From Escherichia coli (lineage in GTDB: Bacteria > Pseudomonadota > Gammaproteobacteria > Enterobacterales > Enterobacteriaceae): 64,000 bases of DNA. Under the pieces are notes generated by a model that was given only the letters and a program-made list of their open reading frames with translations, was not told where the DNA came from and searched no databases. Of this stretch, positions 1-31,889 are shown piece by piece (positions within the stretch are counted from its first letter, which is position 1; every line of letters starts with the position of its first letter). Location: the NCBI RefSeq assembly GCF_030013595.1, contig NZ_CP122768.1; one strand, given 5' to 3'. The translations under genes were made by a program, and so were the position numbers.

Positions 1-1062
<1,062 letters not shown>

Positions 1063-1066
1063 ACCT

Positions 1067-1366
1067 ATGGCGCTTACAAAAGCTGAAATGTCAGAATATC
1101 TGTTTGATAAGCTTGGGCTTAGCAAGCGGGATGCCAAAGAACTGGTTGAACTGTTTTTCGAAGAGATCCGTCGCGCTCTGGAAAACGGCGAACAGGTGAA
1201 ACTCTCTGGTTTTGGTAACTTCGATCTGCGTGATAAGAATCAACGCCCGGGACGTAACCCGAAAACGGGCGAGGATATTCCCATTACAGCACGGCGCGTG
1301 GTGACCTTCAGACCCGGGCAGAAGTTAAAAAGCCGGGTCGAAAACGCTTCGCCCAAAGACGAGTAA
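1067..1366 (+). CDS. ihfA: integration host factor alpha subunit
   Basis: 99-aa ORF with HU/IHF-family sequence (GFGNF...RNPKTGE); 4 bp after pheT stop. Confidence 0.95.
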
Positions 1367-1383
1367 TCTGATCTAACTAAAAA

Positions 1384-1405
1384 GGCCGCTTTGCGGCCTT
1401 TTTTC
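1384..1405 (+). terminator. rho-independent terminator after ihfA
   Basis: GC stem ggccgc-tttg-gcggcc followed by T-run. Confidence 0.7.
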
Positions 1406-1466
1406 TTTTCACTGTCGAAGAGTCACCGTAAAATCAACGCCATGACACTTCAGCAGAACGGATACC

Positions 1467-2447: not shown

Positions 2448-2509
2448 CCGCAAAAAGACGGTCTATGATTAAAAGCTAAGATTTTTACTGACCACACCCA
2501 GGAGAAACG

Positions 2510-3061
2510 ATGCAAGATTCCATTCTGACGACCGTAGTGAAAGATATCGACGGTGAAGTGACCACGCTGGAGAAGTACGCCGGTAATGTGCTGTTGATTG
2601 TCAATGTCGCCTCAAAGTGTGGCTTAACGCCGCAATATGAGCAGTTGGAGAATATTCAGAAAGCCTGGGCCGATCGTGGTTTTGTGGTGCTGGGATTCCC
2701 GTGCAACCAGTTTCTGGAGCAAGAACCGGGCAGCGATGAAGAGATTAAAACTTACTGCACCACTACATGGGGGGTGACGTTCCCGATGTTCAGTAAGATT
2801 GAAGTTAATGGCGAAGGACGCCATCCGCTGTATCAAAAATTGATTGCCGCAGCGCCGACCGCAGTCGCGCCGGAAGAGAGCGGATTCTATGCCCGTATGG
2901 TCAGCAAAGGTCGTGCACCGCTGTACCCTGATGATATTTTATGGAATTTTGAGAAATTTTTAGTTGGCAGGGACGGATTGGTCATCCAGCGTTTTTCCCC
3001 GGATATGACGCCGGAAGATCCCATTGTGATGGAAAGCATTAAACTGGCGTTGGCGAAATAA
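2510..3061 (+). CDS. btuE: glutathione-peroxidase-family thiol peroxidase
   Basis: 183-aa ORF with GPx motifs ([15 protein letters not shown]). Confidence 0.9.
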
Positions 3062-3810
3062 TGTCTATTGTGATGCAGCTACAGGATGTTGCGGAATCAA
3101 CCCGCCTTGGGCCGCTTTCTGGCGAGGTTCGGGCAGGGGAGATCCTGCATCTGGTGGGGCCGAATGGCGCGGGTAAGAGTACCTTACTGGCGCGAATGGC
3201 CGGAATGACCAGCGGTAAGGGAAGCATTCAGTTCGCGGGGCAACCACTGGAAGCATGGTCCGCAACAAAACTCGCACTGCATCGCGCCTATTTTTCACAA
3301 CAGCAGACGCCGCCGTTTGCAATGCCGGTCTGGCACTACCTGACACTGCATCAGCACGATAAAACGCGTACCGAACTACTGAATGATGTCGCAGGGGCGC
3401 TGGCTCTTGATGACAAACTCGGACGTAGCACCAATCAACTTTCCGGCGGCGAATGGCAACGCGTACGTCTTGCTGCGGTGGTGCTGCAAATCACACCACA
3501 AGCCAATCCCGCAGGCCAATTACTACTTCTTGATGAGCCCATGAACAGTCTTGATGTTGCGCAACAAAGTGCATTAGACAAAATTCTGAGCGCGCTGTGT
3601 CAGCAAGGACTGGCGATTGTGATGAGCAGTCACGATCTCAACCATACATTGCGTCATGCGCATCGGGCGTGGTTGCTAAAAGGTGGAAAAATGCTGGCCA
3701 GTGGACGCAGGGAAGAGGTGCTCACGCCGCCAAATCTGGCGCAGGCCTATGGGATGAATTTTCGCCGTCTGGATATCGAAGGTCACCGAATGCTGATTTC
3801 GACCATCTGA
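3061..3810 (+). CDS. btuD: vitamin B12 ABC transporter ATP-binding protein
   Basis: 249-aa ORF with Walker [10 protein letters not shown] and ABC signature LSGGEWQR; start overlaps btuE stop by 1 nt. Confidence 0.9.
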
Positions 3811-7137: not shown

Positions 7138-8184
7138 TCAGAAGCGGGTATCTACCGCAGAGGCGAGTTTTTCGACCAGGCGTTCGGTATCTTCCCAGCC
7201 CAGACACGGGTCGGTAATCGATTGACCGTAAGTGAGCGGCTGACCGCCGACGATTTTTTGCGTTCCTTCGCGCAGGAAACTTTCCGCCATAATTCCAGCA
7301 ATCGCCGTAGAGCCATTGCGGATTTGCTGACAAATATCCTCACAAACTTCTAACTGGCGACGGTGCTGCTTCTGGCAGTTACCGTGGCTGAAATCCACCA
7401 CCAGATGTTCAGGTAAATCAAACTCGTGCAGCGTATCGCAGGCTGCGGCGATATCATCGGCATGGTAATTCGGTTTTTTGCCGCCACGCATAATAATGTG
7501 GCCATACGGGTTGCCGCTGGTCTGATAGATGGTCATCTGACCATTTTTGTCTGGCGAGAGGAACATATGGCTGGCGCGGGCTGCGCGGATAGCATCTACG
7601 GCAATCCGCGTGTTGCCATCGGTACCATTTTTAAAACCTACCGGACAGGAGAGTGCCGAAGCCATTTCACGGTGGATCTGACTTTCGGTAGTACGTGCGC
7701 CAATCGCGCCCCAACTGATTAAATCAGCAATAAACTGACCGGTCACCATATCGAGGAACTCAGTCGCGGTAGGAACACCCAGCTCATTTACCTGTAAAAG
7801 TAATTTGCGCGCCAGCTCCAGACCGTGATTTACCCGATAGCTGCCGTTTAAATCCGGATCGGAGATTAGCCCTTTCCAGCCGACAACAGTTCGTGGTTTT
7901 TCAAAATAGGTGCGCATTACGATTTCCAGCCGTGACTGGTACTGGTTGCGCAGCGACTGCAGACGGGTGGCGTACTCCATTGCAGCGGTGAGATCGTGGA
8001 TCGAGCAGGGGCCAATAATGACCAACAGTCGCTTATCTTCACCATTCAGTATTTTTTCAATTCTGCGGCGGGAGTCGGTGACATGGGTGGCGACGCCAGG
8101 CGTTACGGGATACCGTAGCGCGAGTTCGGCGGGCGTTACCAGGCTCTCAATACGCGCAGTACGGAGTTCGTCAGTTCTGTTCAT
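7138..8184 (-). CDS. aroH: DAHP synthase, Trp-sensitive
   Basis: 348-aa ORF recognised as AroH. Confidence 0.95.
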   Translation of the reverse strand: MNRTDELRTARIESLVTPAELALRYPVTPGVATHVTDSRRRIEKILNGEDKRLLVIIGPCSIHDLTAAMEYATRLQSLRNQYQSRLEIVMRTYFEKPRTVVGWKGLISDPDLNGSYRVNHGLELARKLLLQVNELGVPTATEFLDMVTGQFIADLISWGAIGARTTESQIHREMASALSCPVGFKNGTDGNTRIAVDAIRAARASHMFLSPDKNGQMTIYQTSGNPYGHIIMRGGKKPNYHADDIAAACDTLHEFDLPEHLVVDFSHGNCQKQHRRQLEVCEDICQQIRNGSTAIAGIMAESFLREGTQKIVGGQPLTYGQSITDPCLGWEDTERLVEKLASAVDTRF

Positions 8185-11941: not shown

Positions 11942-13588
11942 TTATTCAATCTCTTCACAGACATCCTGAGTTAATCGCCGCATAATATCTTTCCTTAACA
12001 AAAACTTTTGTATTTTACCTGAGGCAGTGCGAGGTAGTTTTTCGATTACCACGATATGTTCAGGATATTTATATTTCGCGACCCGTTTACGGCTAAAAAA
12101 AGTCACCACGTCTTCCAGCGATAATGAATGATGCGGCGCTTTCAGCACGACATAAGCGCATGAGCGTTCACCTAAACGTTCATCGGGCATTGCAATCACA
12201 CAGGCATCGTGAATTTTAGGATGCTGTAATAAAATATCTTCTACTTCACGGCTGCTAATATTTTCGCCGCCGCGGACAATAATATCTTTCTTGCGCCCGG
12301 TTATTTTTATATAGCCAGCCTCATCCATGCGGCAGAGATCGCCGCTGTAATACCAGCCTTCTTCATCCAGCGCACGGGCGGTTAATTCAGGTTCATCAAA
12401 ATACCCCATAAACACATTGGGGCCACGCGAGGCTTCTTCACCTTCGCAACCTGGCGGTAAGGTCTTGCGTGCGTCATCGACCACTTTAATCTCAACTCCT
12501 GCGGCAGCGTAACCATCGGTATGCATAAAGCGCGATAAAGGATCGTCGAGATTCACCACTGCGTGCGGCGAACTTTCTGTGGAACCATAAACACTTAATA
12601 ATTTAATGCCGCGCTGTTGGCATTCACGCGCCACTTTTTTGGGGATTGTGGTCCCGCCGCAAAGAAAGAAGCGCAGCGCTGAAAGGTCAGCGGGTTGTTT
12701 CTCCAGTAAATTCAAAAGATCATAGACAAACGGCGTTGCGCCGAGCATACAGGTGCAACGCTGCTGCTCAAGCAGCGCGAGACACGCATCAGGAGTGAAA
12801 ATATCTAACAACACGCTGCGAGCGCCAATTAAGAATGGTGCCGTTACGCCATGCAGAAAGCCCGTTGCATGACCAAGTGGCGCAGGCATCATAAAGACAT
12901 CCTGCCAGGTCAGATTCAACCGCGCGCAATAAGCCCGCTCACTGGCGAGAATATTGTTATGCGTTAGCATCACGCCCTTTGGCAGACCCTCGGTTCCGGA
13001 GGTAAACAGCACCGCGGCTAATTCATCGCCGTGGACCGTTATCGCCGTGGTCAGAGGAGTATTGTCGGCGATAATCTGACTTAATGAGAGGGAAGAGGTG
13101 GCGGGAGCCAGTTTGTCCACGCCGACAATTTGTTGTAGTTGTAGAAGCTGATTTTGCAGCGGCAGGATTAAATCTACCGGACGCGTTTGTTTAAACAACG
13201 TCGGTGCAAAGAACATTTTTGCCTGACACTTATTGAGTACCCATACCAGTTCTGCTTCCCGCCAGGAAGGCAACAGCGGTACGGAAACCGCACCGATTTT
13301 CAGGCAGGCAAGATAGATAACGGTAAATTCACACCAGCCAGGCAGTTGAAATGCGATACGATCGCCTGATTCAATACCCTTCGCTAACATCCAGTTTGCC
13401 AGACAGCTCGCGGCGTGATCGAGCGCGCTATAGGTGTACGATGCACCATGATTATCGACCACGGCAATTTTGTCTGGCATCGCACGAGCGGTCTGCTGCC
13501 AGTAATCGGCCAGCGAAGCATCGCCCCATAGCCCTTGCTGACGATACGCCGCACGACGTTGTTCGTAAAACGTTAATGTCACTTTCAT
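11942..13588 (-). CDS. fadK: short-chain acyl-CoA synthetase
   Basis: 548-aa ORF (start MKVTLTF inside the 566-aa track ORF) with AMP-binding motifs. Confidence 0.85.
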   Translation of the reverse strand: MKVTLTFYEQRRAAYRQQGLWGDASLADYWQQTARAMPDKIAVVDNHGASYTYSALDHAASCLANWMLAKGIESGDRIAFQLPGWCEFTVIYLACLKIGAVSVPLLPSWREAELVWVLNKCQAKMFFAPTLFKQTRPVDLILPLQNQLLQLQQIVGVDKLAPATSSLSLSQIIADNTPLTTAITVHGDELAAVLFTSGTEGLPKGVMLTHNNILASERAYCARLNLTWQDVFMMPAPLGHATGFLHGVTAPFLIGARSVLLDIFTPDACLALLEQQRCTCMLGATPFVYDLLNLLEKQPADLSALRFFLCGGTTIPKKVARECQQRGIKLLSVYGSTESSPHAVVNLDDPLSRFMHTDGYAAAGVEIKVVDDARKTLPPGCEGEEASRGPNVFMGYFDEPELTARALDEEGWYYSGDLCRMDEAGYIKITGRKKDIIVRGGENISSREVEDILLQHPKIHDACVIAMPDERLGERSCAYVVLKAPHHSLSLEDVVTFFSRKRVAKYKYPEHIVVIEKLPRTASGKIQKFLLRKDIMRRLTQDVCEEIE

Positions 13589-13644
13589 TTTGGACTCTCG
13601 AGACAGAACATCAGGCCCGAGATGCGGGCCTGTGGGATGCATGA

Positions 13645-13938
13645 TTAGCCGTAGCGAAAATCAATACCGAAGGTGCCTGCAGGATATTGCCACTGTTCGA
13701 GAATAGTGTTGCCGCACAGCACCCGACAGGTGCCGCACTCCAGACAACCGGCGGAATCGAAATGAATGTTTCCTGCGTCATCCTGCTTATAAAGTCCGGC
13801 AGGGCAAGCTTTCATTAATTTACGGAATTCATTGATATCGGGATTTGCCGCCAAAATGATATGCGGGTGGCCCTCATCAACATGGAATTTATTGACGCCT
13901 AATTTGATGTCGACGTTAACCGTAGCGTTCTGGCTCAT
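13645..13938 (-). CDS. ydiT: FixX-like ferredoxin
   Basis: 97-aa Cys-rich ORF; 4-bp overlap with ydiS. Confidence 0.85.
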   Translation of the reverse strand: MSQNATVNVDIKLGVNKFHVDEGHPHIILAANPDINEFRKLMKACPAGLYKQDDAGNIHFDSAGCLECGTCRVLCGNTILEQWQYPAGTFGIDFRYG

Positions 13939-15224
13939 AGCGCGGTTGCTCCCTTAATGCCATCTTTCAGCAAGTTGATCAGTCCAATTTTCTTCGCGTG
14001 TCCCATGATCATTTTGCGTACCGGTTGGTTAGGTTTGCCGTCGATGGTGAACATCTCGTTCATGATGTCGGCGACCATTCGTGGGTATTGGCTAAACAGG
14101 CGCGGGTTTTCCATCAGCGCCGGGATCTTGCGGAAATGCTGCATATCGCGCATAACACAACTTTGTTCCAGCTCACGTTTGTATTGCGCCAGACTGCTGG
14201 CGGAGAAATCCGCGCGTTCTTTGGCGGCGATCACCGTTGTGGCGGCAGCCTGAGCCGATGCAATGGCTAAATCCATGCCGCGGACTGTAAAACCCAAATT
14301 CAGGCAGAAGCCTGCGGCGTCACCAACGATCATCACGCCCTCGTTAACCAGTTGCGGCACCATTGCCAGACCGCCTTCCGGCACCATATGCGCGGAATAT
14401 TCAAGCAGTTTGCCGCCGCTGATCAGCGGGCGAATGGCGGGGTGTTGTTTAAAATCTTCCAGCATTTGCGGCACGCTTTTTTGCGCATGGGCGATATCAC
14501 CCAATCCACAAACCAGCCCCAACGATACGGAATCATTGTTGGTATAGAGGAATCCGCCACCCATCAGGCCGTCCGAAGGGGAACCGGCAAACAGCCAGGC
14601 GGCACCTTCCTCGCCCGTAACATTAAAGCGATCGTTGATCTGTTCTGGTGTGAGGCCAATAACCTCTTTAACACCAACAGCGTAATGATGCGGATCGGAA
14701 GCGGGAACCATTCCCAGCGAGCGGCCAAGCATCGAGTTAACGCCATCAGCCAGAATCACCACATTCGCTTCGAGAATATCATCCCCGGCCTGCACGCCAG
14801 TGACCTTGTTTCCTTCACGAACCAGCGCATCGACACGAACGCCCGGGATAAACTGCGCGCCAGCCTGTTCGGCTTGATCCATCAACCACGGGTCCAGACG
14901 ATTACGCAATACGGTATAAGACGCGTGTTGCGGAACATCTGGTTGCTCGCGGTGAAAATCGAGGGTAACGGCACTCTCTTCGGTTAAGAAGGAGATTTTC
15001 TCGCGTGTGACCTTGCGTTCTACCGGCGCTGATGCTGCAAAGCCTGGAATGATCGCTTCAAGTGTGTGGGCATAAAGACGCCCGCCGGTCATGTTTTTAC
15101 ATCCGGCACTGTCGCCGCGTTCTATCACCAGGACATCCAGCCCGGCTCGCGCCATGACCAGTGCGGCAACGCTACCAGCAACGCCCGCACCGACCACAAT
15201 GGCATCAAATTTGTCATCCGACAT
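13935..15224 (-). CDS. ydiS: FixC-like ETF-quinone oxidoreductase flavoprotein
   Basis: 429-aa ORF with N-terminal FAD fold GAGVAGS. Confidence 0.85.
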   Translation of the reverse strand: MSDDKFDAIVVGAGVAGSVAALVMARAGLDVLVIERGDSAGCKNMTGGRLYAHTLEAIIPGFAASAPVERKVTREKISFLTEESAVTLDFHREQPDVPQHASYTVLRNRLDPWLMDQAEQAGAQFIPGVRVDALVREGNKVTGVQAGDDILEANVVILADGVNSMLGRSLGMVPASDPHHYAVGVKEVIGLTPEQINDRFNVTGEEGAAWLFAGSPSDGLMGGGFLYTNNDSVSLGLVCGLGDIAHAQKSVPQMLEDFKQHPAIRPLISGGKLLEYSAHMVPEGGLAMVPQLVNEGVMIVGDAAGFCLNLGFTVRGMDLAIASAQAAATTVIAAKERADFSASSLAQYKRELEQSCVMRDMQHFRKIPALMENPRLFSQYPRMVADIMNEMFTIDGKPNQPVRKMIMGHAKKIGLINLLKDGIKGATAL

Positions 15225-15279
15225 GCGTTATGCTCCCTTCCCGCTGCGTTTACAGCGGGAGATGTGGTTGAAAGGGGAA

Positions 15280-16218
15280 TTAGCGGCTCAACTGGCTAAT
15301 CAGGGCAGGGACGACTTTGTAGATATCGCCCACCAGACCGTAGTCGGCATAGTTGAAGATTGGCGCATTTTTATCTTTATTGATGGCGACAATCACTTTT
15401 GCGCCGTTGCCGCCAACCATATGCTGGATCTGCCCGGAGATCCCCAGCGTCAGGTAGAGATCGGATTTCAGCAACACGCCGGAGACACCGATATAACGTT
15501 CACGCTCCATCCAGTTCTCGCCTTCGGCAATTGGACGTGAACAGCCGACTTCAGCATTCAGCACCGCCGCCAGTTCGTGGACCATTTTCAGGTCATCCTG
15601 CGCTGCCAGACCACGACCGACGCCAACCACACGTTTTGCTTTGCTCAGGTCCACGCTGCTTGCCGCTTTCGCACGGCGTTCGCGACAGAGAATTTCATGA
15701 CGCGGGGCAACATAAGGTACCGTTTCTGTCGGGCACTGATGAGAGGTATCACTGGTGCACGGTTCCTGAACACCGGGCGCAAGGGTAATGATCGCCAGCG
15801 GGCTGTTGATCTTTTCCTGTGCGAACGCTAACCCGCCATACATCCGGTGTTCGGCGCAAATGTGACCATCGACAATATCCACCGCCGTGGCATCGTTCAC
15901 CAGCGCCGCATTCAGTTGCACACTTAACCGTGCTGCCAGAGCTTTACCGCGTTTCGTCGCGGCCAGCAGCAACATAGAAGGGTGTTTATCTTTCAGCAGG
16001 GCAGCAATGCTTTCGGCGTAATTTTCAGTACGTTGCAGCGCATCATTTTGCTCAAGAACATAAATACATTTTGGACCATAAGGCATAACTGCCTGCGCCT
16101 GGTCGGTATTTTGTACAATGGCATACACCTGTTGGCCCCATTGCTGCGCGCCGCTAAACAATTCAGCATAACGTTCAGGATTATCGCTAAAGACCCAGAC
16201 GCTGTTTAATTGACTCAT
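15280..16218 (-). CDS. ydiR: electron transfer flavoprotein alpha subunit (FixB-like)
   Basis: 312-aa ORF recognised as ETF alpha. Confidence 0.85.
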   Translation of the reverse strand: MSQLNSVWVFSDNPERYAELFSGAQQWGQQVYAIVQNTDQAQAVMPYGPKCIYVLEQNDALQRTENYAESIAALLKDKHPSMLLLAATKRGKALAARLSVQLNAALVNDATAVDIVDGHICAEHRMYGGLAFAQEKINSPLAIITLAPGVQEPCTSDTSHQCPTETVPYVAPRHEILCRERRAKAASSVDLSKAKRVVGVGRGLAAQDDLKMVHELAAVLNAEVGCSRPIAEGENWMERERYIGVSGVLLKSDLYLTLGISGQIQHMVGGNGAKVIVAINKDKNAPIFNYADYGLVGDIYKVVPALISQLSR

Positions 16219-16237
16219 CGTTTCTTCTCCGTAGGCT

Positions 16238-17002
16238 TCAGTTCAGGGCTTTCTTCAGATGTTCCGCCAGCTCGGCAATGGCCTCCGGCGAATCGTTATC
16301 GAGAATGATGTGCTTACGTTCTGTTTGCGGCGGTACGCGAATGCTGGTCAGTTCAGCAAGTGGTGCGCTCTGGCTCCAGCCAATATCACTTGCCTGCCAC
16401 TGATTTACCGGTTTTTTACCCGCGCCGAGAATGGCTTTCATCGAAGGAATGCGTGGCACGTTAATATCGGAGGTGACGCAGAGCACGGCTGGAACAGAGA
16501 GTTCAATAACTTCAACATCATCTTCAAGCATGCGTTCAATCACCAGTGTATTGCCCTGACGCTGAATAGCACTCACTGCATTAATCACCGGAAGTTGCAG
16601 AATTTCTCCGACCAGCAAGCCAACCTGCTGGGCATAAAGGTCGCCGGAACCTTCACCAAAGATCAGTAAATCGAAGCCGATCTTTTCAACTGCTGCCGCC
16701 AGCGCCTTTGCGGTATCGAGAGGCAGTGCATGTTCAAGTTGCGCATCCTGCACCAAATACAGGCTATGCGGCCCGCGGGATAGCACGTCTTTACGCACTT
16801 TCGAGTTCTGCAACAATGAGCCGCCAATGGTCAGCGCGGCTATCTCATCGTCATCTGTTGCAATCTGGCTTGCAGCTTCAATGGCATTGAGATCGAACTG
16901 GCTGATTTTGGCGTCGGCATTGTCGAAATTCAGGGTATATTCTGGAGTGACAACAATGTCCTGTTCTTCAGGCACCAGCTTAAAGCAGGTTATTATTTTC
17001 AT
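16238..17002 (-). CDS. ydiQ: electron transfer flavoprotein beta subunit (FixA-like)
   Basis: 254-aa ORF starting MKIITCFKLVPEEQ inside the longer track ORF. Confidence 0.85.
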   Translation of the reverse strand: MKIITCFKLVPEEQDIVVTPEYTLNFDNADAKISQFDLNAIEAASQIATDDDEIAALTIGGSLLQNSKVRKDVLSRGPHSLYLVQDAQLEHALPLDTAKALAAAVEKIGFDLLIFGEGSGDLYAQQVGLLVGEILQLPVINAVSAIQRQGNTLVIERMLEDDVEVIELSVPAVLCVTSDINVPRIPSMKAILGAGKKPVNQWQASDIGWSQSAPLAELTSIRVPPQTERKHIILDNDSPEAIAELAEHLKKALN

Positions 17003-17317
17003 GATTTCTCCTGTGAGTCGCATACGGAACCATCTCCGATGGAAGGTAAAAATGGCCTGAAAATAGTGTGCGATAGCGGTGCGGGGTTTTCGACGGAGCA
17101 AGCTGTTTTCCTTGCCAACAATCTTGCAAAAAAAATGCGATCGCTAAAACAAAAGTGCAATTTGCGGCAATATAGTTATTCCATGACCGTACAATCTTGC
17201 ATTCAGTGTAAATAATCTTGTTTAGCTCTCGCTAAACGCGGTTGTATAACCGCAATACACGCCGTATTTTATCCGGCATATATTGTTTTTGCTTGCTCAT
17301 GGAATAGGGAGGTTATC

Positions 17318-18229
17318 ATGTATCAACGCTGTTTTGATAACGCCAGCGAAACGCTGTTTGTCGCCGGTAAAACGCCACGGCTTTCACGTTTTGCATTTAG
17401 CGATGATCCAAAATGGGAGTCCGGACATCACGTTCATGACAATGAAACCGAGTTAATTTACGTCAAGAAAGGGGTAGCAAGGTTTACCATCGATTCTTCG
17501 TTATATGTCGCGCACGCCGATGACATTGTGGTGATAGAACGTGGCAGGCTGCATGCGGTGGCCTCTGACGTTAACGATCCGGCAACGACGTGTACCTGTG
17601 CGCTGTACGGCTTTCAGTTTCAGGGGGCTGAGGAAAATCAGCTACTGCAACCGCATTCTTGCCCGGTAATTGCCGCAGGGCAGGGAAAAGAAGTTATTAA
17701 AACCTTATTTAATGAGCTAAGTGTGATTTTGCCGCAAAGTAAAAATAGCCAAACATCTTCGTTATGGGACGCATTTGCCTATACGTTAGCAATTCTTTAC
17801 TATGAAAACTTTAAAAATGCTTATCGTTCGGAGCAGGGATATATTAAAAAAGATGTTCTGATAAAAGATATTCTTTTCTATCTGAATAATAACTATCGCG
17901 AAAAAATCACTTTAGAGCAGTTATCGAAAAAGTTTCGTGCCAGCGTCAGTTATATTTGCCATGAATTTACCAAAGAGTATCGCATTTCCCCTATTAACTA
18001 TGTTATTCAACGGCGTATGACGGAAGCGAAATGGTCACTCACTAATACTGAATTATCACAGGCAGAGATCTCCTGGCGTGTGGGTTATGAAAATGTCGAT
18101 CACTTTGCCAAACTGTTTTTGCGCCATGTCGGCTGTTCGCCCAGCGATTACCGCAGGCAATTTAAAAACTGTTTTGCGGAACAAGAAATCTTATCTGAAT
18201 TTCCTCAACCGGTAAGTCTTGCCGGATAA
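17318..18229 (+). CDS. ydiP: AraC-family transcriptional regulator, divergent from ydiQ
   Basis: 303-aa ORF with C-terminal AraC-type HTH. Confidence 0.85.
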   Translation: MYQRCFDNASETLFVAGKTPRLSRFAFSDDPKWESGHHVHDNETELIYVKKGVARFTIDSSLYVAHADDIVVIERGRLHAVASDVNDPATTCTCALYGFQFQGAEENQLLQPHSCPVIAAGQGKEVIKTLFNELSVILPQSKNSQTSSLWDAFAYTLAILYYENFKNAYRSEQGYIKKDVLIKDILFYLNNNYREKITLEQLSKKFRASVSYICHEFTKEYRISPINYVIQRRMTEAKWSLTNTELSQAEISWRVGYENVDHFAKLFLRHVGCSPSDYRRQFKNCFAEQEILSEFPQPVSLAG

Positions 18230-18271: not shown

Positions 18272-19423
18272 TTATTTGTTCTGATAATCTTTCAGGATCT
18301 GCCGACCCGCTACGTAAATCATAATTTCGTCTGTACCGCCGCCGATACGTTCACAACGGACATCACGCCAGAAGCGAGAGACGCGCGCCTCATCGGTATA
18401 GCCCAGACCGCCCATGATTTGAATCGCATCATCAATAACTTCCATTGCGGTACGTGCGCAGTACAGTTTTGCCAGCGCCGCGCTGGTGCGCAGTGACTGA
18501 TGCTGATCGGCTTGCCATGCCACTTTCAGCACCATGTTGCGCATGTTGTCGATCTTAATCGCCATCAGCGCCAGTTTTTCCTGGATCATCTGGTTATGAC
18601 CAATGGGCTTACCAAAAGCGATACGTTGGTTGGCATAGCGGGCGGCATCTTCAAAGGCACACTCGGCAAAGCCGGTGCTGCGCGCGGCGTTGATCAGGCG
18701 CTCCATCTCAAAGTTATACATCACATTGAGGAAACCCATTCCTTCTTCGCCCACCATGTCGCTCTCTTCAACTTCCACGTTGTCGAGATAGACTTCGCAG
18801 GTGCTGAGCATATGCCAGCCGATTTTATGCAGCGGGTTAATCTTAATGCCGGGCTTACTGGAGTCGACCCACCACAGGGTGAAGGCTTTTTTGGGATCTT
18901 TCGGTTCTGGATCGCGCGCCAGCACCAGCATATACGGGTACTCTTTCGCACCGGTAATAAAGGTTTTCTGTCCGTTGATGTAAACCTTGCCGTTTTTACG
19001 CGTGTAAGTGGTGGTGGCGCTGTTGTTATCTGAGCCTGCGCCTGGTTCCGTCAATGCCAGGGCATAGGCGGGATCACCCGTTTCCAGGGTGCTTTCCGCC
19101 GTTTTACGTAGCTGCTCTGCAGAACCGAAACGGCGCATACTGTGAATACATTGACCGTTGGTGATCAAAAATGCCGGGGCACCGCATTTTGACACTTCCA
19201 TCAGCGCCAGCATCTGGGTGACGTAATCCGCAGGGATGCCACCAAATTCTTCCGGCACGCCAAGCATAGAAATGCCGTTATCCGCCAGCGCCCGCATAAA
19301 CTCACGCGGGTATGTCCCGTTTTGATCGCAGGTGCGGAAATACTCTTCCGGGAAGTTGGTCGTAATCAACTCGCGAATACTGGCCAGCAGCAGTTCTTGT
19401 TCTTCAGTTAAAGAAAAATCCAT
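18272..19423 (-). CDS. ydiO: acyl-CoA dehydrogenase family protein
   Basis: 383-aa ORF from MDFSLTEEQ (track ORF has an 18-codon upstream extension). Confidence 0.85.
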   Translation of the reverse strand: MDFSLTEEQELLLASIRELITTNFPEEYFRTCDQNGTYPREFMRALADNGISMLGVPEEFGGIPADYVTQMLALMEVSKCGAPAFLITNGQCIHSMRRFGSAEQLRKTAESTLETGDPAYALALTEPGAGSDNNSATTTYTRKNGKVYINGQKTFITGAKEYPYMLVLARDPEPKDPKKAFTLWWVDSSKPGIKINPLHKIGWHMLSTCEVYLDNVEVEESDMVGEEGMGFLNVMYNFEMERLINAARSTGFAECAFEDAARYANQRIAFGKPIGHNQMIQEKLALMAIKIDNMRNMVLKVAWQADQHQSLRTSAALAKLYCARTAMEVIDDAIQIMGGLGYTDEARVSRFWRDVRCERIGGGTDEIMIYVAGRQILKDYQNK

Positions 19424-19436: not shown

Positions 19437-21032
19437 TTAATGAGCCGCTTCAGGCAGGACAAAACCCATCGCCGCATCGATAAATAATCTTTCGTCCATC
19501 AGTTTGAGTTCTGGCGAAATCACTGGGGTGAAATCCATTTTGTCGAGAATATCTTTTTGTAAATCGACGCCAGGGGCGATTTCGATTAAATGCAGGCCGT
19601 CTTCTTTCAGCGTGAATACTGCGCGCTCAGTGATATAACGAACATCCAGCCCTCGCTCGAGAGCGATTTTTCCGCTGAAAGTAATTTCCGGTAGTTCCCG
19701 AATAAATTTCTTCACCCGTCCTTCCTGGACGATATTTAATTTGCCGTCGGTAATTTCTGTTTTTAAACTGCCCGCAGTTAATGTGCCGCAGAAAACGATT
19801 TTCTTCGAAGTGGCACTGATATCAATAAATCCACCGGTGCCCATGATTTTACCATTGAATTTATGCACGCCGACGTTACCGTGCTGGTCGACTTCAGCAA
19901 AACTCAAGTAACAAACATCCAGACCGCCACCGTGATAAAAATCAAACTGGGACGTCATATCCAGAATGGCGCGGGTATTCACGTTCGCGCCAAAGGCGAT
20001 CCCCTGTGAAGTAATTCCGCCAATCGGACCTGTTTCTACCGTCAGAATAAAGTCATCAGCACAACCTTCTTCCCGGGCGACCAGGCCAATGCCGTCAGCA
20101 ATACCGACGCCGACATTCCCCACCGCGCCTTTGCGCATTTCGAATAATGCGCGCCGCGCAACTAATTTACGTTGGTTTAGGGGCAGGCTAAGTTTGGTGC
20201 TTTCATCAAGGGTGAAGTCACCAGAAATAAAGCGGTTAACCGGTGCACCGCCATACAGTTGGGTTTGATCCGGATCGACCACCACAATATCCACCAGATA
20301 ACCCGGAATACGGACAGATTTAGGATGCAGCGTGGCTTTCTTAACCATTTTCTGCACCTGCATCATCACAATACCGCCGTTATTGTGCACCGCCTGGGCA
20401 ATAACCAATGCGTCGAGATACATCACCTCATCTTCAAAAGTGGCGTAGCCTTCGCTGTCGCAGGTGGTAGCGCGAATGAAGGCAATATCTGGCGCTATCG
20501 CTTTGTAATAGAGATATTCTTTGTTTTCAAACTCGACCAGTTTAATCAGGTCTTCTTTAGTGACTTCATTCAGTTTGCCGCCTTGCTGGCGTGGATCGAC
20601 AAATGTTCCGATGCCAATATCACTAATAATACCAGGCTGGTGGGCTGCGGCGGCGCGTAAGGTTTGTGTAAGTACACCTTGTGGATAGTTATAAGCAATA
20701 ATTTTATTTTGTTCTGCGAGATCAGAAATACGCGGCGATTGTCCCCAGTGACCGCATAATGCCCATTTCACCAGACCTTCTTGCGCCAGCGGACTAATAC
20801 CGCGATCGGCGCGATCGCCAAGCCCTGTTGGACTAATAATCGATAAATTACGTGGCGTTTGAGTCTGTTTATATTTATCAGCAAGAGCAGTAATTAACGT
20901 GGTGGCTTCCAGAATACCGCCGCCAGCGCCTAACACACAAAGTGTTGCTTCGTCGGGAATATAATTCACCGCTTCCTGTGCCGACAGGACCGGCACTCGT
21001 CCATTAATACGAGGTGGTTTTACAGGTTTCAT
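19437..21032 (-). CDS. ydiF: fused alpha/beta acetate CoA-transferase
   Basis: 531-aa ORF recognised as family-I CoA-transferase. Confidence 0.85.
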   Translation of the reverse strand: MKPVKPPRINGRVPVLSAQEAVNYIPDEATLCVLGAGGGILEATTLITALADKYKQTQTPRNLSIISPTGLGDRADRGISPLAQEGLVKWALCGHWGQSPRISDLAEQNKIIAYNYPQGVLTQTLRAAAAHQPGIISDIGIGTFVDPRQQGGKLNEVTKEDLIKLVEFENKEYLYYKAIAPDIAFIRATTCDSEGYATFEDEVMYLDALVIAQAVHNNGGIVMMQVQKMVKKATLHPKSVRIPGYLVDIVVVDPDQTQLYGGAPVNRFISGDFTLDESTKLSLPLNQRKLVARRALFEMRKGAVGNVGVGIADGIGLVAREEGCADDFILTVETGPIGGITSQGIAFGANVNTRAILDMTSQFDFYHGGGLDVCYLSFAEVDQHGNVGVHKFNGKIMGTGGFIDISATSKKIVFCGTLTAGSLKTEITDGKLNIVQEGRVKKFIRELPEITFSGKIALERGLDVRYITERAVFTLKEDGLHLIEIAPGVDLQKDILDKMDFTPVISPELKLMDERLFIDAAMGFVLPEAAH

Positions 21033-21111
21033 TGTTAATTCCTGATACAGGTGTGATTTTCCCTACGCCAGATGGAGAATTAGCGCACAGAGACTCACGA
21101 AATATTATTGC

Positions 21112-21870
21112 TTATGCCTGATGTAAAATAGTTAATACTGTGCGCAAATCATTTACCGAGATTTGCCCTGGCGCAGAGGCTTTTTTTACCGCACCAAAAG
21201 TTGCCGCCGAGCCAAATACTTCACCAGCCAGACGAGAAATTACGCCAGTTTTTGCCATCGACATCGTGATGATTGGACGATCGGCATACTGCTCCTGCAT
21301 CTCCAGGGTCGCGGCAAGCAACGTCAGCACATCGCTGGTACTTTGCGGCATCAGCGCAATCTTAGGAATATCGGCGTCGAAGGACTGCATTTTGCGCAGA
21401 CGGGCAATGATTTCTTCGGCTTCCGGCGTTTTATGGAAGTCATGGTTGGACATGACAACTTTCACATCATGCGCGTGGGCGTAGGCGACGGTTTCTTTAA
21501 CCTGATCATCGCCGGTAAATAACTCCAGATCGATCATATCAACCAGGCCACTATCGATGGCTGCACGATTGAGTGCAATATATGCCTCGGTGGAAATCGC
21601 CTGCTCGCCGCCTTCTTTGGCACTGCGGAAGGTAAACAGCAGCGGTTTTTCTGGCATGGTTTCACGGAGAATTTTTGCTGCCGCCATGACAGACTCCACA
21701 TTGGAGAGGTCGGCATAGTGGTCCACACGCCATTCCAGAATATCAAAGTCCGCTTCACGATAGGCGAGAGCTTCGGATTTCACGCTGGCGATATCTTTCG
21801 CCATCAGCGAGACGATGATTTTAGGTGCGCCCGTACCAATGACGAGATCTTTTACAGTTACGGTTTTCAT
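21112..21870 (-). CDS. aroD: 3-dehydroquinate dehydratase, type I
   Basis: 252-aa ORF recognised as AroD. Confidence 0.95.
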
Positions 21871-21900
21871 TTTTTACCCTTTCTGCACGCGGTCAGCCTG

Positions 21901-22767
21901 TCAGGCACCGAACCCCATGACCTGTTTAACATATTCCAGAGGGAAATCTTTGCCAGTCCATAACGTGAACTGTTCAGCCCCTTGCCACAACAACATGCCG
22001 TATCCATCAATCGTTTTGCAACCAGCTTGTTGCGCCTGCTGCAATAACTTCGTCATATGCGGGTTATACACGCATTCAGTGACCAGAAGTCCCGGATGTA
22101 ACAGACTGATATCATTAACCAATGATTCATTCTCAAGGGGTTTCATACCCACTTTTGTGCCATTGGTTAAAATGTCGGCGGAAGCCAGGGCTTCAGCAAA
22201 GGCTTGCTGATCGGCGAGATCGGTGACCGTGACGACACAATCGGTGTTTTCGTTAACCCGCTGCGCGAAGGCGAGGGCTTTATCGAAGAACTCATCCCGA
22301 CGGTTAAAGAGTTTAATTTCTTTTAAACCTTCAATTGCCCCCTGCGCGCCAATCGCCGTTGAGGCACCTCCGGCCCCTAACAGCACCATCGTTTTGCCTT
22401 TGATATCAAAACCGCTCTCTTTAATGGCGCGAATATGGCCCGTGCCGTCGGTGTTATAGCCACGCAGATAGCCATCATCATTAACGATGGTGTTGATGGC
22501 ACCCACCAGTTTGGCCGCTGGCGTTAATTCATCAACATATTCACACGCCAGTTGTTTGTTCGGCATTGATACACCAGTTCCGCGCATTTTGAGGGCTTTT
22601 AATCCTTCAATTGCTCCGGGAAAACTATCGTTATCCACTTCAAAGGCCATATAGGTAAATGGCAATCCCGCTTTTTCTAAGGCTTTATTCTGCATTTCAG
22701 GCGATAAACTGTGGCGGATGGGATAGGCCATCAGCCCAATCAATTCGTATTTTGCGGTAACATCCAT
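21901..22767 (-). CDS. ydiB: quinate/shikimate dehydrogenase
   Basis: 288-aa ORF with Rossmann motif GAGGAS. Confidence 0.9.
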
Positions 22768-22778
22768 AATTAACTCCT

Positions 22779-24044
22779 TTAACCTCTATGCTTAATTGTG
22801 TTTAACCGGGTGCTAAATTTACGCTCGCCAAACCGCACATCATTTTCAGGAATAATGAAAACGCGGTAATAGCGGATAAAGACAATAATTGCGGTAATCA
22901 GGGCCAGCAGCGCGAAAGTAAAATCGAGAGCAATGATATATTGCAGGCCGATGTTCGACAGATAACCGGTAATCAGCGGAATAACAAAGTTAGCCAGTCC
23001 ACCCATCATCATATAAATACTGGTGACTTTGGCTTTGCTTTTGGGGAAAAACTCTGACATGACCGAAACGCCGAGCTGTAAAATGCCGCCAGCTGCTGAG
23101 AAACCGATAACAAAGGCTCCGGCATTACACACCAGTGGAGAAGGGTACAGGTAGATAATGGCTGCTGTTATTGTTGCCAGTGCAGAGTTAAATACATTAG
23201 CCCAGATGGGCCGGACCATTTTTTTCAGTAGTGCGGCAAAAATAAAGACACAGACCAACGAGCCCATACTGTAATAAGAGATGGTTTTTAATGCTTCAGC
23301 TTCTGACATACCAGCAAAAGCCATCGCATATTTGGGCATCCACACCACAATCACATAAAAGGTCGAGAATGCGGCTACACCGAACAGTACCGATGAAACA
23401 CCTTCCAGCCAGACTAACGGTTTGCTGTTCATTTGCGGTAATTCATGAGCTACGCTGGCGTCCACCAACTGGCTGGGGAATTTGCTTTTCAACAGCATCA
23501 GTGTGATCAGTACAAACAGAATACCCGGAATAATCAGCCCATAGCCGTACCAGATGTTATTGAGCAACATATAGCTCACCAGCATTGGGTAGAACATTTG
23601 CCCGAATGACACCATCGCTTTAACCAGTATGACCGCCGAACCAGAGGCTTTCGGAAAGCATTCCATGAGCGCGGGGTAGCCACCCGTATCCAGCGCTGAG
23701 TTAGCGATACCTACGCACACTGCCAGACAGTAGGCGAGAGTTAAATTCGGGCAAGCAGGGATACCAAAGAAGAATAGCAGATACATTATTACTGCCATTA
23801 ATATTACCGCCCGACGACCAAACTTATCGGAGATCACACCGAAGAATAAAATACTGATCAATCGCCCCAAACCGATACCGGAAATTAAATAGGCAATGCC
23901 CGCGTTGTCAGTGGAAAACTTTTCTGCCAGAGATGACATATTTTGGGCAAGCGTAATAACACTAATGCCGTGCAGGAAATAGCTGAAGTAAATACAAAGA
24001 ACAGCCAGGATAAATGGCGTGCTGAAAGCCTTATTTTGAGACAT
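22779..24044 (-). CDS. ydiN: MFS transporter
   Basis: 421-aa 12-TM ORF with MFS motif DKFGRR; paralogous to ydiM. Confidence 0.85.
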
Positions 24045-24270
24045 TTTCACAGCTCCTTGCTGAAAGATAATTTCGTTACCGTACGTATTGTTCTCCGACG
24101 GTTTACATAATTACTATACTGAAGATGATTTTCCCTGGGTACATGGCATATAGTTTATGTTTCCAGGAATATTGCATGTCATAGTTTGTTTTTGATCGCG
24201 ATTTTCCTTAGTTAGCGCAGAAAGAGTTATTTATCCGTAAGATCTTGCATGACCTGAAAAGAATATTGCA

Positions 24271-25485
24271 TTACCCACCCGGAGCGACATTTTCCTTTAG
24301 CGAGTGATGCCGCGTTTCTTTGCGGCTGCGTAAGCCGATAAACAGTGCCAGTAAAAAGCCGATGGCAGCGATGGCGGTATCGAACCACATAATATCGGCA
24401 ATACTTCTTTGGGACAGATGAGCCGTAATCAACGGAATGGTAAATGTTGCAATACTGCCCGCACTGTAATAGATCCCTGTAGCTTTACCTTTAGCATAGG
24501 GGAAACGTTCAGCCATTAACGTCAGGCCAATTTGCACAACACCTCCAGCAGAGGTAAAACCAATGACAAAAGCAAATATTATCACCACATAAAATGTGGG
24601 ATGCAGACAGACGGTAAACAGAGCAATAAATGAGATAAAGGTGTACAGCATCAGTAATGTTGTTGGGCGAACGGTATTACGAATGAGTGGAGCGGTAATA
24701 AATACACAAAGCAGCGAACCCACGGTGTAGATACTAAGTAGTTTGATCGACATAGTGTATGACATGCCTGCAACAAATTGTCCGTACTGTGCCAGCCACT
24801 GGCTAACCAGATAAAACGTTGCCATTGAGATATAGCCATATAAGGTATAACTGGCTAAATCGATAATTGAACAGCGATGTTCCGTAGAGCTGGTGGTTTT
24901 CTTTATGACAGGTAAGCGACGACCCGGATGGGGTGGGAACGTACAACGGCATAAAAACAGAGCGTTAATAAACATAATGCCTGCGGCAATCATAAAGGAC
25001 CAACCGAACCACAGTTCAGCCCACACTAACAGGATGATGATTAGCGGTAATAAAAATTGTCCGCTGGAAACAAATGCTTTAATTAAAATATTGGCTGTCC
25101 CCGGTGAGCGTGGAAAAGCTTCCATCAAACTGGGATAGGTGCCTGCATCGAGAAAACTGTTTGCCATTCCCGCCAGAAAGCCAAAAACATAAGCGATAAT
25201 GATGTTATTGGTGTGCAGGATGCCAAAAAAGAAGGCCATATAGCAGCACATCCCGAGCATGATAAAAGGGCGGCGACCAAAGCGATCGGATAATAATCCT
25301 GCAAAAAGCAAGACACTTAATCGACCAATGCCCAGTGATGAGATAACTATCGAGACGCCCGCGGCATTAGTCTGCCAAAGCGTCTCCAGCGAGGCCATAT
25401 TCAGGCTCATCAAAATGACGCCCATACCATGCACCAGGTAATTAAAATACAACCCCAGTGCGGTAGGGTAATAGGGATTTTTCAT
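24271..25485 (-). CDS. ydiM: MFS transporter
   Basis: 404-aa 12-TM ORF with MFS motif DRFGRR. Confidence 0.85.
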   Translation of the reverse strand: MKNPYYPTALGLYFNYLVHGMGVILMSLNMASLETLWQTNAAGVSIVISSLGIGRLSVLLFAGLLSDRFGRRPFIMLGMCCYMAFFFGILHTNNIIIAYVFGFLAGMANSFLDAGTYPSLMEAFPRSPGTANILIKAFVSSGQFLLPLIIILLVWAELWFGWSFMIAAGIMFINALFLCRCTFPPHPGRRLPVIKKTTSSTEHRCSIIDLASYTLYGYISMATFYLVSQWLAQYGQFVAGMSYTMSIKLLSIYTVGSLLCVFITAPLIRNTVRPTTLLMLYTFISFIALFTVCLHPTFYVVIIFAFVIGFTSAGGVVQIGLTLMAERFPYAKGKATGIYYSAGSIATFTIPLITAHLSQRSIADIMWFDTAIAAIGFLLALFIGLRSRKETRHHSLKENVAPGG

Positions 25486-25584
25486 AGGTTCTACTTAGCA
25501 AAGGTGCTTTAAAAAGTGTAGCGATGTTGTGTCAGTATCCGTTCATTATTGTTGTAACAACGACAATTCCTTTCTGTGGAGAAA

Positions 25585-25941
25585 TTAACAAAGCCGCTCC
25601 AGATCGTGTGCATATAATTCAGCGGCTACCGATTGATAGATCTTCCAGTCAATAAAATTGCCATCAGGGTAGACTTGTTGAAACGCGGTTAAGTCGGGGA
25701 AAAAACGCATGGTGTTGTTGCCGATGCGGTTATTTATTTTCTCTATGATGGCATGAAGATGTTTTTTTCTTTGCTGACGCATAGCCAACAGTTGCTCGAC
25801 TACACGATCAGGAATGGCGTATTTGCCATTTTCCCACTGACGCCAGCTTTCACTGTCACCGGTCTGGGCAATCCAGGTCGCGCATTCATCAATAGTCATG
25901 GCAAAAATATGGCGAAGTGCCTGGAGTTCATAAGCGTTCAT
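25585..25941 (-). CDS. ydiL: small uncharacterised protein
   Basis: 118-aa ORF from MNAYELQALRH (track ORF is 9 codons longer). Confidence 0.75.
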   Translation of the reverse strand: MNAYELQALRHIFAMTIDECATWIAQTGDSESWRQWENGKYAIPDRVVEQLLAMRQQRKKHLHAIIEKINNRIGNNTMRFFPDLTAFQQVYPDGNFIDWKIYQSVAAELYAHDLERLC

Positions 25942-31622: not shown

Positions 31623-31821
31623 TCCTGACTTAATGCTGCAATTTCGCCAAATCGACCTGGATTAACCTCCGTCCAGGTTCGATAACCTTCTTAATACTGC
31701 TTATCTAACCGCCTGATATTGTTCAAAAATAATACTAATCGCAGTTTGTGTTAAAACGACGGCTTAGCTTTATGAGATTATTCTTATCGCCCCTTCAAGA
31801 GCTAAGCCACTGAGAGTGCCG

Positions 31822-31889
31822 GAGATAAGCGCCGGATGGGGTAGAAACCCTTAAGCCTGTGTCGCACAGACTTAAGGGTTTTCTTATTT
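31822..31889 (+). ncRNA. candidate small RNA ending in a strong intrinsic terminator (possibly RydB)
   Basis: Hairpin cccttaagcctgtg-tcg-cacagacttaaggg plus U-run at 31848-31889, about 225 bp after ydiH; K-12 has RydB between ydiH and sufA; 5' end not determinable here. Confidence 0.35.

Follow-up and report, generated by a model that had tools for sequence, protein, structure and literature searches.

YdiM and YdiN of Escherichia coli: homologous transporters encoded beside ydiB-aroD and their probable link to hydroaromatic acids

Gene layout of the locus

The region considered here lies on contig NZ_CP122768.1 of the Escherichia coli RefSeq assembly GCF_030013595.1, from which one stretch of 64,000 nucleotides (the window) was analysed. 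Between positions 21112 and 25485 the window carries four intact genes on the minus strand, in the order ydiM, ydiN, ydiB and aroD, which encode two permeases of the major facilitator superfamily (MFS), a quinate/shikimate dehydrogenase and a 3-dehydroquinate dehydratase (dehydroquinase). A first-pass annotation had described the two permease genes as tandem paralogues that form a duplicated uptake system for a hydroaromatic substrate. Overall, the observation holds up, and part of its interpretation does too: gene context lends good support to a link with hydroaromatic acids, whereas duplication is unsupported.

The ydiM gene (25485..24271) encodes an MFS permease of 404 amino acids and ydiN (24044..22779) one of 421 amino acids counted from its ATG, both identified as open reading frames (ORFs) with Pfam MFS_1 matches; the mechanical ORF of ydiN starts at a GTG at 24050, ahead of the ATG. 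The two are separated by an intergenic region of 226 bp (24045..24270), with three minus-strand copies of the motif TGCAAKAT and a conserved -10-like element. After a gap of 11 bp follows ydiB (22767..21901), the 288-amino-acid product of which is an NAD(P)-dependent quinate/shikimate dehydrogenase that matches NCBIfam NF009390 at 669.9 bits (cut-off 349) and carries the Pfam domains Shikimate_dh_N and SDH_C. A further 30 bp separate ydiB from aroD (21870..21112), which encodes a type I 3-dehydroquinate dehydratase of 252 amino acids, matching TIGR01093 at 292 bits (cut-off 139) and Pfam DHquinase_I at 260 bits. Both transporter genes therefore lie immediately upstream of ydiB and aroD on the same strand, as the first-pass annotation had stated, and the word "flanking" in its title is a misnomer.

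Gene lengths and order are the same in the RefSeq annotation of E. coli chromosomes, and the 4.7-kb stretch (21000-25700) matched 5425 of the 5426 complete E. coli genomes, with an identity of 95-99% in most. Of the ydiM gene itself, at least 80% was present in 5289 of the 5426; it was partial in about 67 and absent from about 70. It is 98.2% identical to ydiM of K-12, and the window appears to represent an E. coli lineage somewhat apart from K-12; the YdiM protein is 98% identical to the representative of the E. coli cluster. In the closest genomes (NZ_CM149870.1 and NZ_CM149862.1, 99.9%), an IS5-like insertion sequence of the ISKpn26 family lies inside 21000-25700.

YdiM and YdiN as homologous MFS permeases

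YdiM and YdiN are homologous far beyond chance. BLASTP aligned the two proteins end-to-end, with 140 of 385 positions identical (36%), 59% positives and a single gap (254 bits, E = 2e-85), so that the homology claimed on first pass is borne out. The peptides cited in its support are present and aligned (YdiM 51-73, YdiN 57-79), and correspond to MFS signature motif A (G-x-x-x-D-R/K-x-G-R-R/K), which occupies the loop between transmembrane helices 2 and 3 (TM2-TM3) and is common to most MFS proteins. The YdiM copy reads GLLSDRFGRRP, the motif is also visible in YdiN, and position 69, D73, G76 and R77 are invariant or nearly so across the family. Since motif A is so widespread, the cited peptide alone is no evidence of close paralogy; the full-length alignment is.

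Membership of the superfamily is clear from Pfam PF07690 (MFS_1), which matches YdiM at 109.8 bits and YdiN at 114.3 bits (cut-off 33.4), in two stretches of each protein, and a crude Kyte-Doolittle scan gave 12 hydropathy peaks for YdiN and nine above threshold for YdiM. By NCBIfam, neither is a member of the aromatic acid:H+ symporter family TIGR00895 (YdiM 39.2 bits and YdiN 43.7 bits, against a cut-off of 418.55). A weak match to MhpT was also seen, and the best named match of YdiN was TsgA, at 69.6 bits against a cut-off of 221; the resemblance between the two proteins thus exceeds that to any other named transporter family. With YdiN as the query, a search of 1.84 billion representatives returned 112 matches at E <= 1e-30, indicating a small family. 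Within its alignment, the YdiM and YdiN lineages share one residue, conserved to 90% or more, in 75 columns and show fixed differences in only seven, a pattern that fits one substrate class. Polar residues among the 75 (YdiN numbering) include Y19, H25, N35, N115, D119, Y123, E128, Q149, Q323 and D374.

Gene context across 88 loci

Gene context was compared across 88 loci (numbered with the prefix L), nine of them representatives read directly and 79 taken from one-genome-per-species contigs. The locus search used a six-sequence alignment of the family, a 23-sequence alignment being too diverse, and homologues of the window proteins and of three neighbours were located by tblastn. Forty-one of the loci are of the Enterobacterales ydiN type and 47 are others. 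In the former group, ydiB and aroD lie directly downstream of ydiN in 39 of 41 loci, the remaining two ending at contig ends, and a fixed order ydiL-ydiM-ydiN-ydiB-aroD-ydiF-ydiO-(ydiP)-ydiQRST is likewise kept in 39. Within approximately 10 kb of the permease gene, a YdiB-like dehydrogenase is encoded at 34 of the 47 other loci, and a dehydrogenase together with a type I dehydroquinase at 30.

The association is often intimate. The permease gene is placed between those for the dehydrogenase and the dehydroquinase in Lactobacillaceae, Paenibacillus, Enterococcus, Clostridium cibarium, Klebsiella and Erwinia, and the dehydrogenases at these loci are 48-56% identical to YdiB, scoring near or above the cut-off of the YdiB model and far above the AroE level. 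On one metagenomic contig (L003), a trio of MFS, dehydrogenase and dehydroquinase genes closes a complete aro operon, and on another (L008) the MFS protein is fused to chorismate mutase. The module is also carried by Gilliamella and Frischella from the bee gut (L058-L062), in which quinate consumption has been reported (PMC5726620).

Two arrangements recur outside the ydiN-type loci. One is a LysR-regulated operon, present in Klebsiella aerogenes (L090 7082-12001), Erwinia (L091 7065-12006), L055-L060 and L087, which encodes an Fe-S flavoenzyme of about 670 amino acids, a YdiB-like dehydrogenase, a YdiM-like permease and a type I dehydroquinase. The flavoenzyme combines Oxidored_FMN and Pyr_redox_2 domains, its best model being BaiCD at 431 bits, under the cut-off of that model; no description of the function of such an operon was found in the literature searched. 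The other is a row of genes in Lactobacillaceae for LysR, dehydrogenase, permease, dehydroquinase, ApbE and an FMN_bind/FAD_binding_2 reductase, to which one or two additional permeases of the family are often joined; loci of this type are L054 (8985-14744), L069, L071, L073, L081-L084, L086, L088 and L005. Reductases of the FMN_bind/FAD_binding_2 type are usually extracytoplasmic, and the dehydrogenase and dehydroquinase are cytoplasmic.

Upstream of ydiM lies ydiL (25585..25941, minus strand), which encodes a helix-turn-helix protein of the Aca2/YdiL family (Pfam Aca2_YdiL, 202 bits), a family known from anti-CRISPR-associated regulators. It occupies this position in nearly all Enterobacterales loci and is also found beside the module in Erwinia (L091 6365-6721) and Frischella (L062 14891-15241), so that its product may regulate the module.

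Published work and the closest known systems

The paralogy of YdiM and YdiN and the shikimate link are already in print. According to the account in PMC4585142 of the work of Johansson and Liden (2006), ydiN, ydiB and aroD were induced together in a shikimate producer under carbon limitation, and YdiN was proposed as a carrier of shikimate or of by-products. Hu et al. (PMC2672614) grouped YdiL, YdiM and YdiN with aro genes. Deletion of ydiN gave an approximately 1.3-fold higher shikimate titre in one study (PMC8788726), and production strains delete ydiN and shiA together to stop re-uptake (PMC8788726, PMC10305709), thereby already acting on the assumption that YdiN carries shikimate. The most extensive treatment is that of Khalfaoui-Hassani et al. 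(2023; PMC10588857), who described ydiN as a paralogue of ydiM, noted the neighbours ydiB and aroD, found that about 75% of homologues adjoin a shikimate-pathway gene, and reported both the aroD-ydiM-ydiB arrangement of Klebsiella and the chorismate mutase fusions. Publications from 2006 to 2023 thus already cover the gene pair, its homology and the shikimate hypothesis, and the finding as the first-pass annotation stated it adds nothing to the record.

The subfamily of PMC10588857 comprises the same genes, and its context, Klebsiella gene order and fusions were recovered here independently from different data. That study differs in that its experiments point to a role for YdiM in copper uptake and the bo3 oxidase, and the ene-reductase neighbours, the linkage to ydiF-ydiO-ydiQRST-fadK, the Sutterella block and the shared upstream motif described below are additions to it. 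Some interest therefore remains: no substrate has yet been demonstrated for YdiM or YdiN in the best-studied bacterium, and plant diets and the gut are rich in quinate and shikimate. The present comparison offers a sharper and testable frame, comprising two old transporter lineages, a recurrent dehydrogenase-permease-dehydroquinase trio and a near-constant ene-reductase partner.

Several known transport systems bear a likeness to this pair. Like YdiM and YdiN, ShiA, the characterised E. coli permease for shikimate and dehydroshikimate, is an MFS secondary carrier, of the metabolite:H+ symporter family, for which the same compounds are proposed, and its gene is the one co-deleted with ydiN (PMC8788726); however, transport has been measured for ShiA and inferred for YdiM and YdiN, and shiA is not clustered with ydiB-aroD. 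The aromatic acid:H+ symporters (PcaK, BenK and MhpT; TC 2.A.1.15) transport carboxylated ring compounds, as the candidate substrates are, and TCDB files YdiM and YdiN among them, at TC 2.A.1.15.12 and 2.A.1.15.13 (per PMC10588857). The weak TIGR00895 and MhpT matches point the same way, although scores of 39-44 bits fall far short of the TIGR00895 cut-off. Quinate and shikimate utilisation clusters with a permease include quiX-pca of Acinetobacter and Pseudomonas, qsuA-D of Corynebacterium and the qut and qa clusters of Aspergillus and Neurospora. These also combine a permease with a dehydrogenase and a dehydroquinase and convert imported quinate to dehydroshikimate, but have extras of their own, dehydroshikimate dehydratase and protocatechuate cleavage, none of which was seen at the loci compared here, where the usual partner is an ene-reductase.

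Probable substrates and direction of transport

YdiM and YdiN most likely carry early shikimate-pathway hydroaromatic acids across the inner membrane, a reading to which a probability of about 60% can be attached. Both would be 12-helix permeases from a single small MFS subfamily, the genes of which, in both Proteobacteria and Firmicutes, usually have those for a YdiB-like dehydrogenase and a type I dehydroquinase as neighbours, and the proton gradient would supply the energy for transport, as it does for other MFS carriers. The candidate substrates are quinate, shikimate, 3-dehydroquinate and 3-dehydroshikimate; imported quinate could be oxidised by YdiB to dehydroquinate, which AroD would dehydrate to dehydroshikimate. 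The ydiM gene, set apart behind the 226-bp gap with its conserved promoter-like region, is not a recent copy of ydiN. The gene context across the 88 loci supports a substrate among these four acids. The first-pass proposal of hydroaromatic uptake is thus supported as regards the class of substrate, for which the neighbouring dehydrogenase and dehydroquinase genes, the published co-induction and the effect on shikimate titre all speak, and is not supported as regards a local duplication.

A number of points weigh against this reading. Thirteen of the 47 other loci, many of them from Clostridium, have no dehydrogenase gene within 10 kb. Neither YdiM nor YdiN reached the cut-off of any NCBIfam transporter family, a PDB sequence search with YdiN gave no match at E <= 0.001, and the ydiM-ydiN gap yielded no minus-strand promoter in a strict sigma-70 scan. 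E. coli has an established shikimate permease in ShiA and, to our knowledge, lacks the downstream enzymes for the use of quinate or shikimate as a carbon source. No transport assay for YdiM or YdiN was found in the literature searched. Moreover, deletion of ydiM has been reported to slow 64Cu uptake and to abolish growth dependent on the bo3 oxidase (PMC10588857), and, in a separate screen, to cause sensitivity to isoprenol (PMC4643228).

The latter phenotypes suit a different role, in which YdiM, and perhaps YdiN, would be unrelated to hydroaromatics and would act as a copper importer for bo3 maturation or as a solvent or drug efflux pump, the proximity of ydiB-aroD being accidental. The E. 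coli ydiM gene no longer has the dehydrogenase, dehydroquinase, reductase and LysR partners kept in Klebsiella and Erwinia, and could therefore have drifted to another use. However, the copper and isoprenol phenotypes are effects on whole cells and indirect, none of the 88 loci showed a copper or haem gene adjacent to a family member, YdiM keeps the 75 family-conserved positions, and ydiM is kept next to ydiN through the Enterobacterales; such a role is considered quite improbable. Transport in the opposite direction is a further alternative, with both proteins releasing surplus shikimate-pathway intermediates or by-products (quinate, dehydroshikimate) on build-up. This was the function first proposed for YdiN by Johansson and Liden, namely export of aromatic by-products under induction of ydiB, aroD and ydiN (PMC4585142), and YdiM appeared efflux-pump-like in the isoprenol screen. 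The permease within the biosynthetic aro operon of L003 and the chorismate mutase fusion of L008 would suit a safety valve as well as an importer. Nevertheless, deletion of ydiN raised extracellular shikimate (PMC8788726), which fits re-uptake, and most family members are encoded in operons under LysR control, together with genes for a dehydrogenase, a dehydroquinase and a reductase, the layout of substrate-inducible utilisation; export is held to be unlikely.

Origin of the two transporter genes

The relationship of the two genes was examined in a neighbour-joining tree of 60 family members (386 columns, 200 bootstrap replicates), a distance method of modest power. A YdiN clade, comprising sequences from Enterobacterales, Sutterella, Telmatospirillum and two metagenomic relatives, was recovered in 200 of 200 replicates, and YdiM grouped with the Klebsiella and Erwinia transporters in 184. 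Mean identities agree with this division: YdiM is 67% identical to the Klebsiella and Erwinia proteins and 51% identical to the transporters of the Firmicute dehydrogenase-MFS-dehydroquinase loci, as against 36% to YdiN, while YdiN is 41% identical to the Firmicute transporters. These gaps in identity are wide, which offsets the modest power of a distance tree.

Recent tandem duplication in place, giving two redundant copies of one uptake system, would account for two adjacent, homologous genes on the same strand, and loci with two or three family permeases are frequent elsewhere (24 of the 47 others). Nevertheless, YdiM and YdiN were sisters in 0 of 200 replicates, and YdiM is closer to the transporters of other lineages than to its neighbour. 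A search for direct and inverted repeats revealed no in-register DNA similarity between ydiM and ydiN, the short repeats listed being chance-like, which argues that the relationship is old. In Yersinia, Brenneria, Dickeya, Symbiopectobacterium and Prodigiosinella, the pair is separated by a LysR gene on the opposite strand (L031 8124-9026, L039 8252-9253, and L030, L032, L033, L035-L038, L041, L047 and L078). This LysR protein shares 56-64% identity with the regulator encoded at the end of the Klebsiella operon, and is absent from Escherichia, Citrobacter and Kosakonia. Furthermore, the Betaproteobacteria Sutterella seckii (L046) and S. wadsworthensis (L049) carry ydiN-ydiB-aroD-ydiF-ydiO with a divergent ydiQRST-fadK set, at 64-84% protein identity to E. 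coli, and both lack ydiM and ydiL, a distribution that suggests horizontal transfer of the whole block. On these grounds the term "duplicated", in the sense of a local tandem duplication, is not sustained, and such an origin is very improbable.

The simplest reading of the tree and the gene orders is that ydiM and ydiN represent two old lineages brought together rather than a recent duplicate pair. The ydiM gene would be the permease gene of a LysR-controlled reductase-dehydrogenase-permease-dehydroquinase module, the other genes of which were lost in the Escherichia line, and ydiN that of a second, separate module, of a lineage tied to ydiF-ydiO-ydiQRST-fadK.

Transcription units and a shared upstream motif

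The genes ydiN, ydiB and aroD occupy one strand with minimal gaps, and their order is kept in Sutterella as well as in the 39 Enterobacterales loci. Such tight packing leaves no room for the usual internal promoters, except any inside coding sequence, and no terminator-like sites were found on the minus strand in the ydiN-ydiB, ydiB-aroD or ydiM-ydiN gaps. We infer that ydiN is the first gene of a ydiN-ydiB-aroD unit. This unit may read on into ydiF-ydiO in the present strain, in which the aroD-ydiF gap (21033-21111) is only 79 bp long and is without a 65-bp insert found in most E. coli (L001 4115-4179). The insert contains a GC-rich hairpin, TTCGGCGGGGGAGGATATTCCCGCCGAA, with a direct repeat, AAATATTATTGCTTA, at its bounds.

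Conservation in the gap between ydiM and ydiN is patchy, as is typical of regulatory DNA. Escherichia, Citrobacter, Kosakonia and Intestinirhabdus share, without change, three copies of ATGCAAKAT(T) and a GTATAKTAAT box, while the flanks of these elements diverge. A -10-like TATAGT at 24118-24113 was recognised from this alignment and not from the promoter scan, which overall gave seven sigma-70 sites against 10.2 in shuffled sequences, that is, fewer than in the shuffles. With conserved promoter-like elements of its own in a gap of this length, ydiN is expected to have its own regulated promoter, and ydiM, probably outside the ydiN-ydiB-aroD unit, to form a separate one; read-through from ydiM into ydiN may occur.

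The motif TGCAAKAT (extended, ATGCAAKATT) lies 5' of ydiN at 24263-24270, 24242-24249 and 24169-24176, all on the minus strand. Two further copies of TGCAAGAT, facing ydiQ, lie on the same strand at 17194-17201 and 17121-17128, in the ydiQ-ydiP intergenic region (17003..17317). The window contains 15 copies of TGCAAKAT against 6.66 expected, a number reached in 0 of 100 shuffles, and the five in the gaps 5' of ydiN and ydiQ are all oriented with the genes. Across 39 loci the density is 3.48 per kb upstream of ydiN or ydiQ and 0.17 per kb elsewhere (approximately 20-fold), a count that overstates independence since the loci are related; in these upstream stretches the motif was never on the opposite strand. 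Genera that keep a LysR gene before ydiN have no TGCAAKAT upstream of ydiN. A candidate for the protein that binds the motif is YdiP, an AraC-family regulator (17318..18229, plus strand; Pfam HTH_18, AraC_binding and Cupin_2), the gene of which is present in 37 of the 41 Enterobacterales ydiN-type loci; AraC-type genes also flank YdiN-like genes in L002 and L007.

Other motifs were also considered. The 9-mer ATGCAATAT, with one mismatch allowed, is not enriched in the window (17 copies against 22.75 expected). A TyrR box (TGTAAA-N6-TTTACA) suspected by eye at TGTAAACCGTCGGAGAAC and a sigma-54 promoter suspected at CTGGAAAC...TGC were both rejected, as each fails on the second half-site or on spacing.

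Ene-reductase partners and the wider ydi block

One of three unrelated ene-reductase systems adjoins the module in 32 of the 47 other loci and in 38 of the 41 Enterobacterales ydiN-type loci. The 32 comprise 16 loci with full-length BaiCD/FadH-like flavoenzymes, 11 with ApbE and flavocytochrome-like reductases, and five with acyl-CoA (coenzyme A) dehydrogenase sets; OYE-only matches in L005, L006 and L073 (34%, about 340 amino acids) represent a different, shorter enzyme and are counted among the 18 of the OYE column and not among the 16. The Fe-S flavoenzyme of about 670 amino acids (BaiCD/FadH/enoate reductase) is found in Klebsiella, Erwinia, Paenibacillus, Enterococcus, Gilliamella, Frischella, Turicibacter and several Clostridia, and the combination of ApbE with an FMN_bind/FAD_binding_2 flavocytochrome-like reductase in Lactobacillaceae. 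The set of acyl-CoA dehydrogenase, CoA transferase and electron-transfer flavoprotein (ETF) accompanies the module in the Enterobacterales ydiN-type loci, Sutterella, Telmatospirillum and two metagenomic contigs. Differing reductase types at one fixed position of a module usually signal a shared step, and shikimate and dehydroshikimate are alpha,beta-unsaturated acids. A preprint by Little et al. (bioRxiv 10.1101/2022.12.26.521950) reports that S. wadsworthensis and Eggerthella lenta reduce the enoate group of shikimate to give hydroshikimate, with a growth benefit, and that Sutterella respires shikimate to hydroshikimate.

In E. coli the corresponding set begins downstream of aroD. There, ydiF (19437..21032, minus strand; Pfam CoA_trans) encodes a CoA transferase and ydiO (18272..19423, minus strand) an acyl-CoA dehydrogenase paralogous to CaiA. 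The ydiF gene follows aroD in every Enterobacterales ydiN-type locus that is long enough and in both Sutterella loci (83% identity), and ydiO is conserved beside it. YdiO matches NF008997 at 786.7 bits, the next-best model being crotonobetainyl-CoA dehydrogenase (CaiA) at 452 bits, and cyclohexane-1-carbonyl-CoA dehydrogenase models also match, under their cut-off. Beyond ydiP lie ydiQ-ydiR-ydiS-ydiT-fadK (11942..17002, minus strand), for two ETF subunits, a FixC-like protein, a FixX-like protein and an acyl-CoA ligase. YdiS reaches 638 bits with the FixC model (cut-off 610), and ydiQ, ydiR and ydiT were found as conserved ORFs. The second-best NCBIfam model of FadK (11942-13642) is cyclohexanecarboxylate-CoA ligase at 416 bits, under its cut-off and ahead of the long-chain fatty-acid ligases. 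The ydiQRST-fadK set accompanies ydiN-ydiB-aroD in L007 as it does in Sutterella.

This inventory resembles two known reductive systems, the cai/fix system of E. coli for carnitine and the car system of Acetobacterium woodii for caffeate. The likeness extends to the CoA transferase, the CoA ligase, an acyl-CoA dehydrogenase serving as enoyl-CoA reductase, the ETF pair, and the FixC-like and FixX-like proteins. In the ydi set the cai/fix-like parts list is complete, with YdiF, FadK, YdiO, ydiQ/ydiR, YdiS and ydiT encoded together. Differences are also apparent: CaiT is a BCCT antiporter whereas the transporter of the ydi block is an MFS protein, and anaerobic fatty-acid oxidation is the conventional assignment of the ydi set (PMC3896788).

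The ene-reductase partners, the Sutterella block, the shared motif and the cai/fix-like parts together suggest one regulon, possibly under YdiP, through which hydroaromatic acids would be taken up and reduced in a CoA-dependent manner. A tentative extension of this idea is that ydiN-ydiB-aroD-ydiF-ydiO, ydiP and ydiQRST-fadK form a single system for the uptake of plant hydroaromatic acids and the reduction of their ring double bond as CoA thioesters, serving as an anaerobic electron sink. YdiN would import quinate or shikimate, which YdiB and AroD would interconvert; the CoA ester would be made by YdiF and FadK and then reduced by YdiO, with YdiQRST delivering the electrons. YdiM would then be the leftover permease of a second, older module. 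Support comes from the three ene-reductase systems, the identity of the Sutterella block to that of E. coli together with the shikimate respiration reported for Sutterella, the occurrence of TGCAAKAT 5' of both ydiN and ydiQ, and the second-best model of FadK. Against it, the flavin reductase of S. wadsworthensis (L049 1850-3283) lies directly beside the block, which there adjoins a two-component system and this FAD_binding_2 reductase (19-3283), and we know of nothing on the reduction of shikimate by E. coli. In addition, the measured activity of FadK is on short- and medium-chain fatty acids, in keeping with the assignment of the set to anaerobic beta-oxidation (PMC3896788). Taken together, the odds are against the extended proposal, though not overwhelmingly. 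Nothing relevant was found in the literature searched for a link of ydiF, ydiO or ydiQRST to shikimate or quinate, or for quinate reductase genes of lactobacilli. If true, the proposal would give the ydiF-ydiO-ydiQRST-fadK genes, which are poorly understood, a substrate, so that genes labelled as anaerobic fatty-acid oxidation would have a different main substrate, and would identify a route of shikimate or quinate reduction in Enterobacterales and Sutterella.

Other features of the window

On the upstream side of ydiM, beyond ydiL, lies the rprA small RNA gene, and RprA, 5' of ydiL, was the sole Rfam match in the locus, no riboswitch or leader being found there by Rfam. Elsewhere in the window, Rfam matched STnc550, HPnc0260, RydB, STnc540 and two tRNA genes, the coordinates of these matches being 58731-59121, 49856-50019, 31789-31849, 1308-1466 and 49984-50138. 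An ORF resembling DAHP synthase, which we take to be aroH, is located at 7138-8184, approximately 13 kb from aroD.

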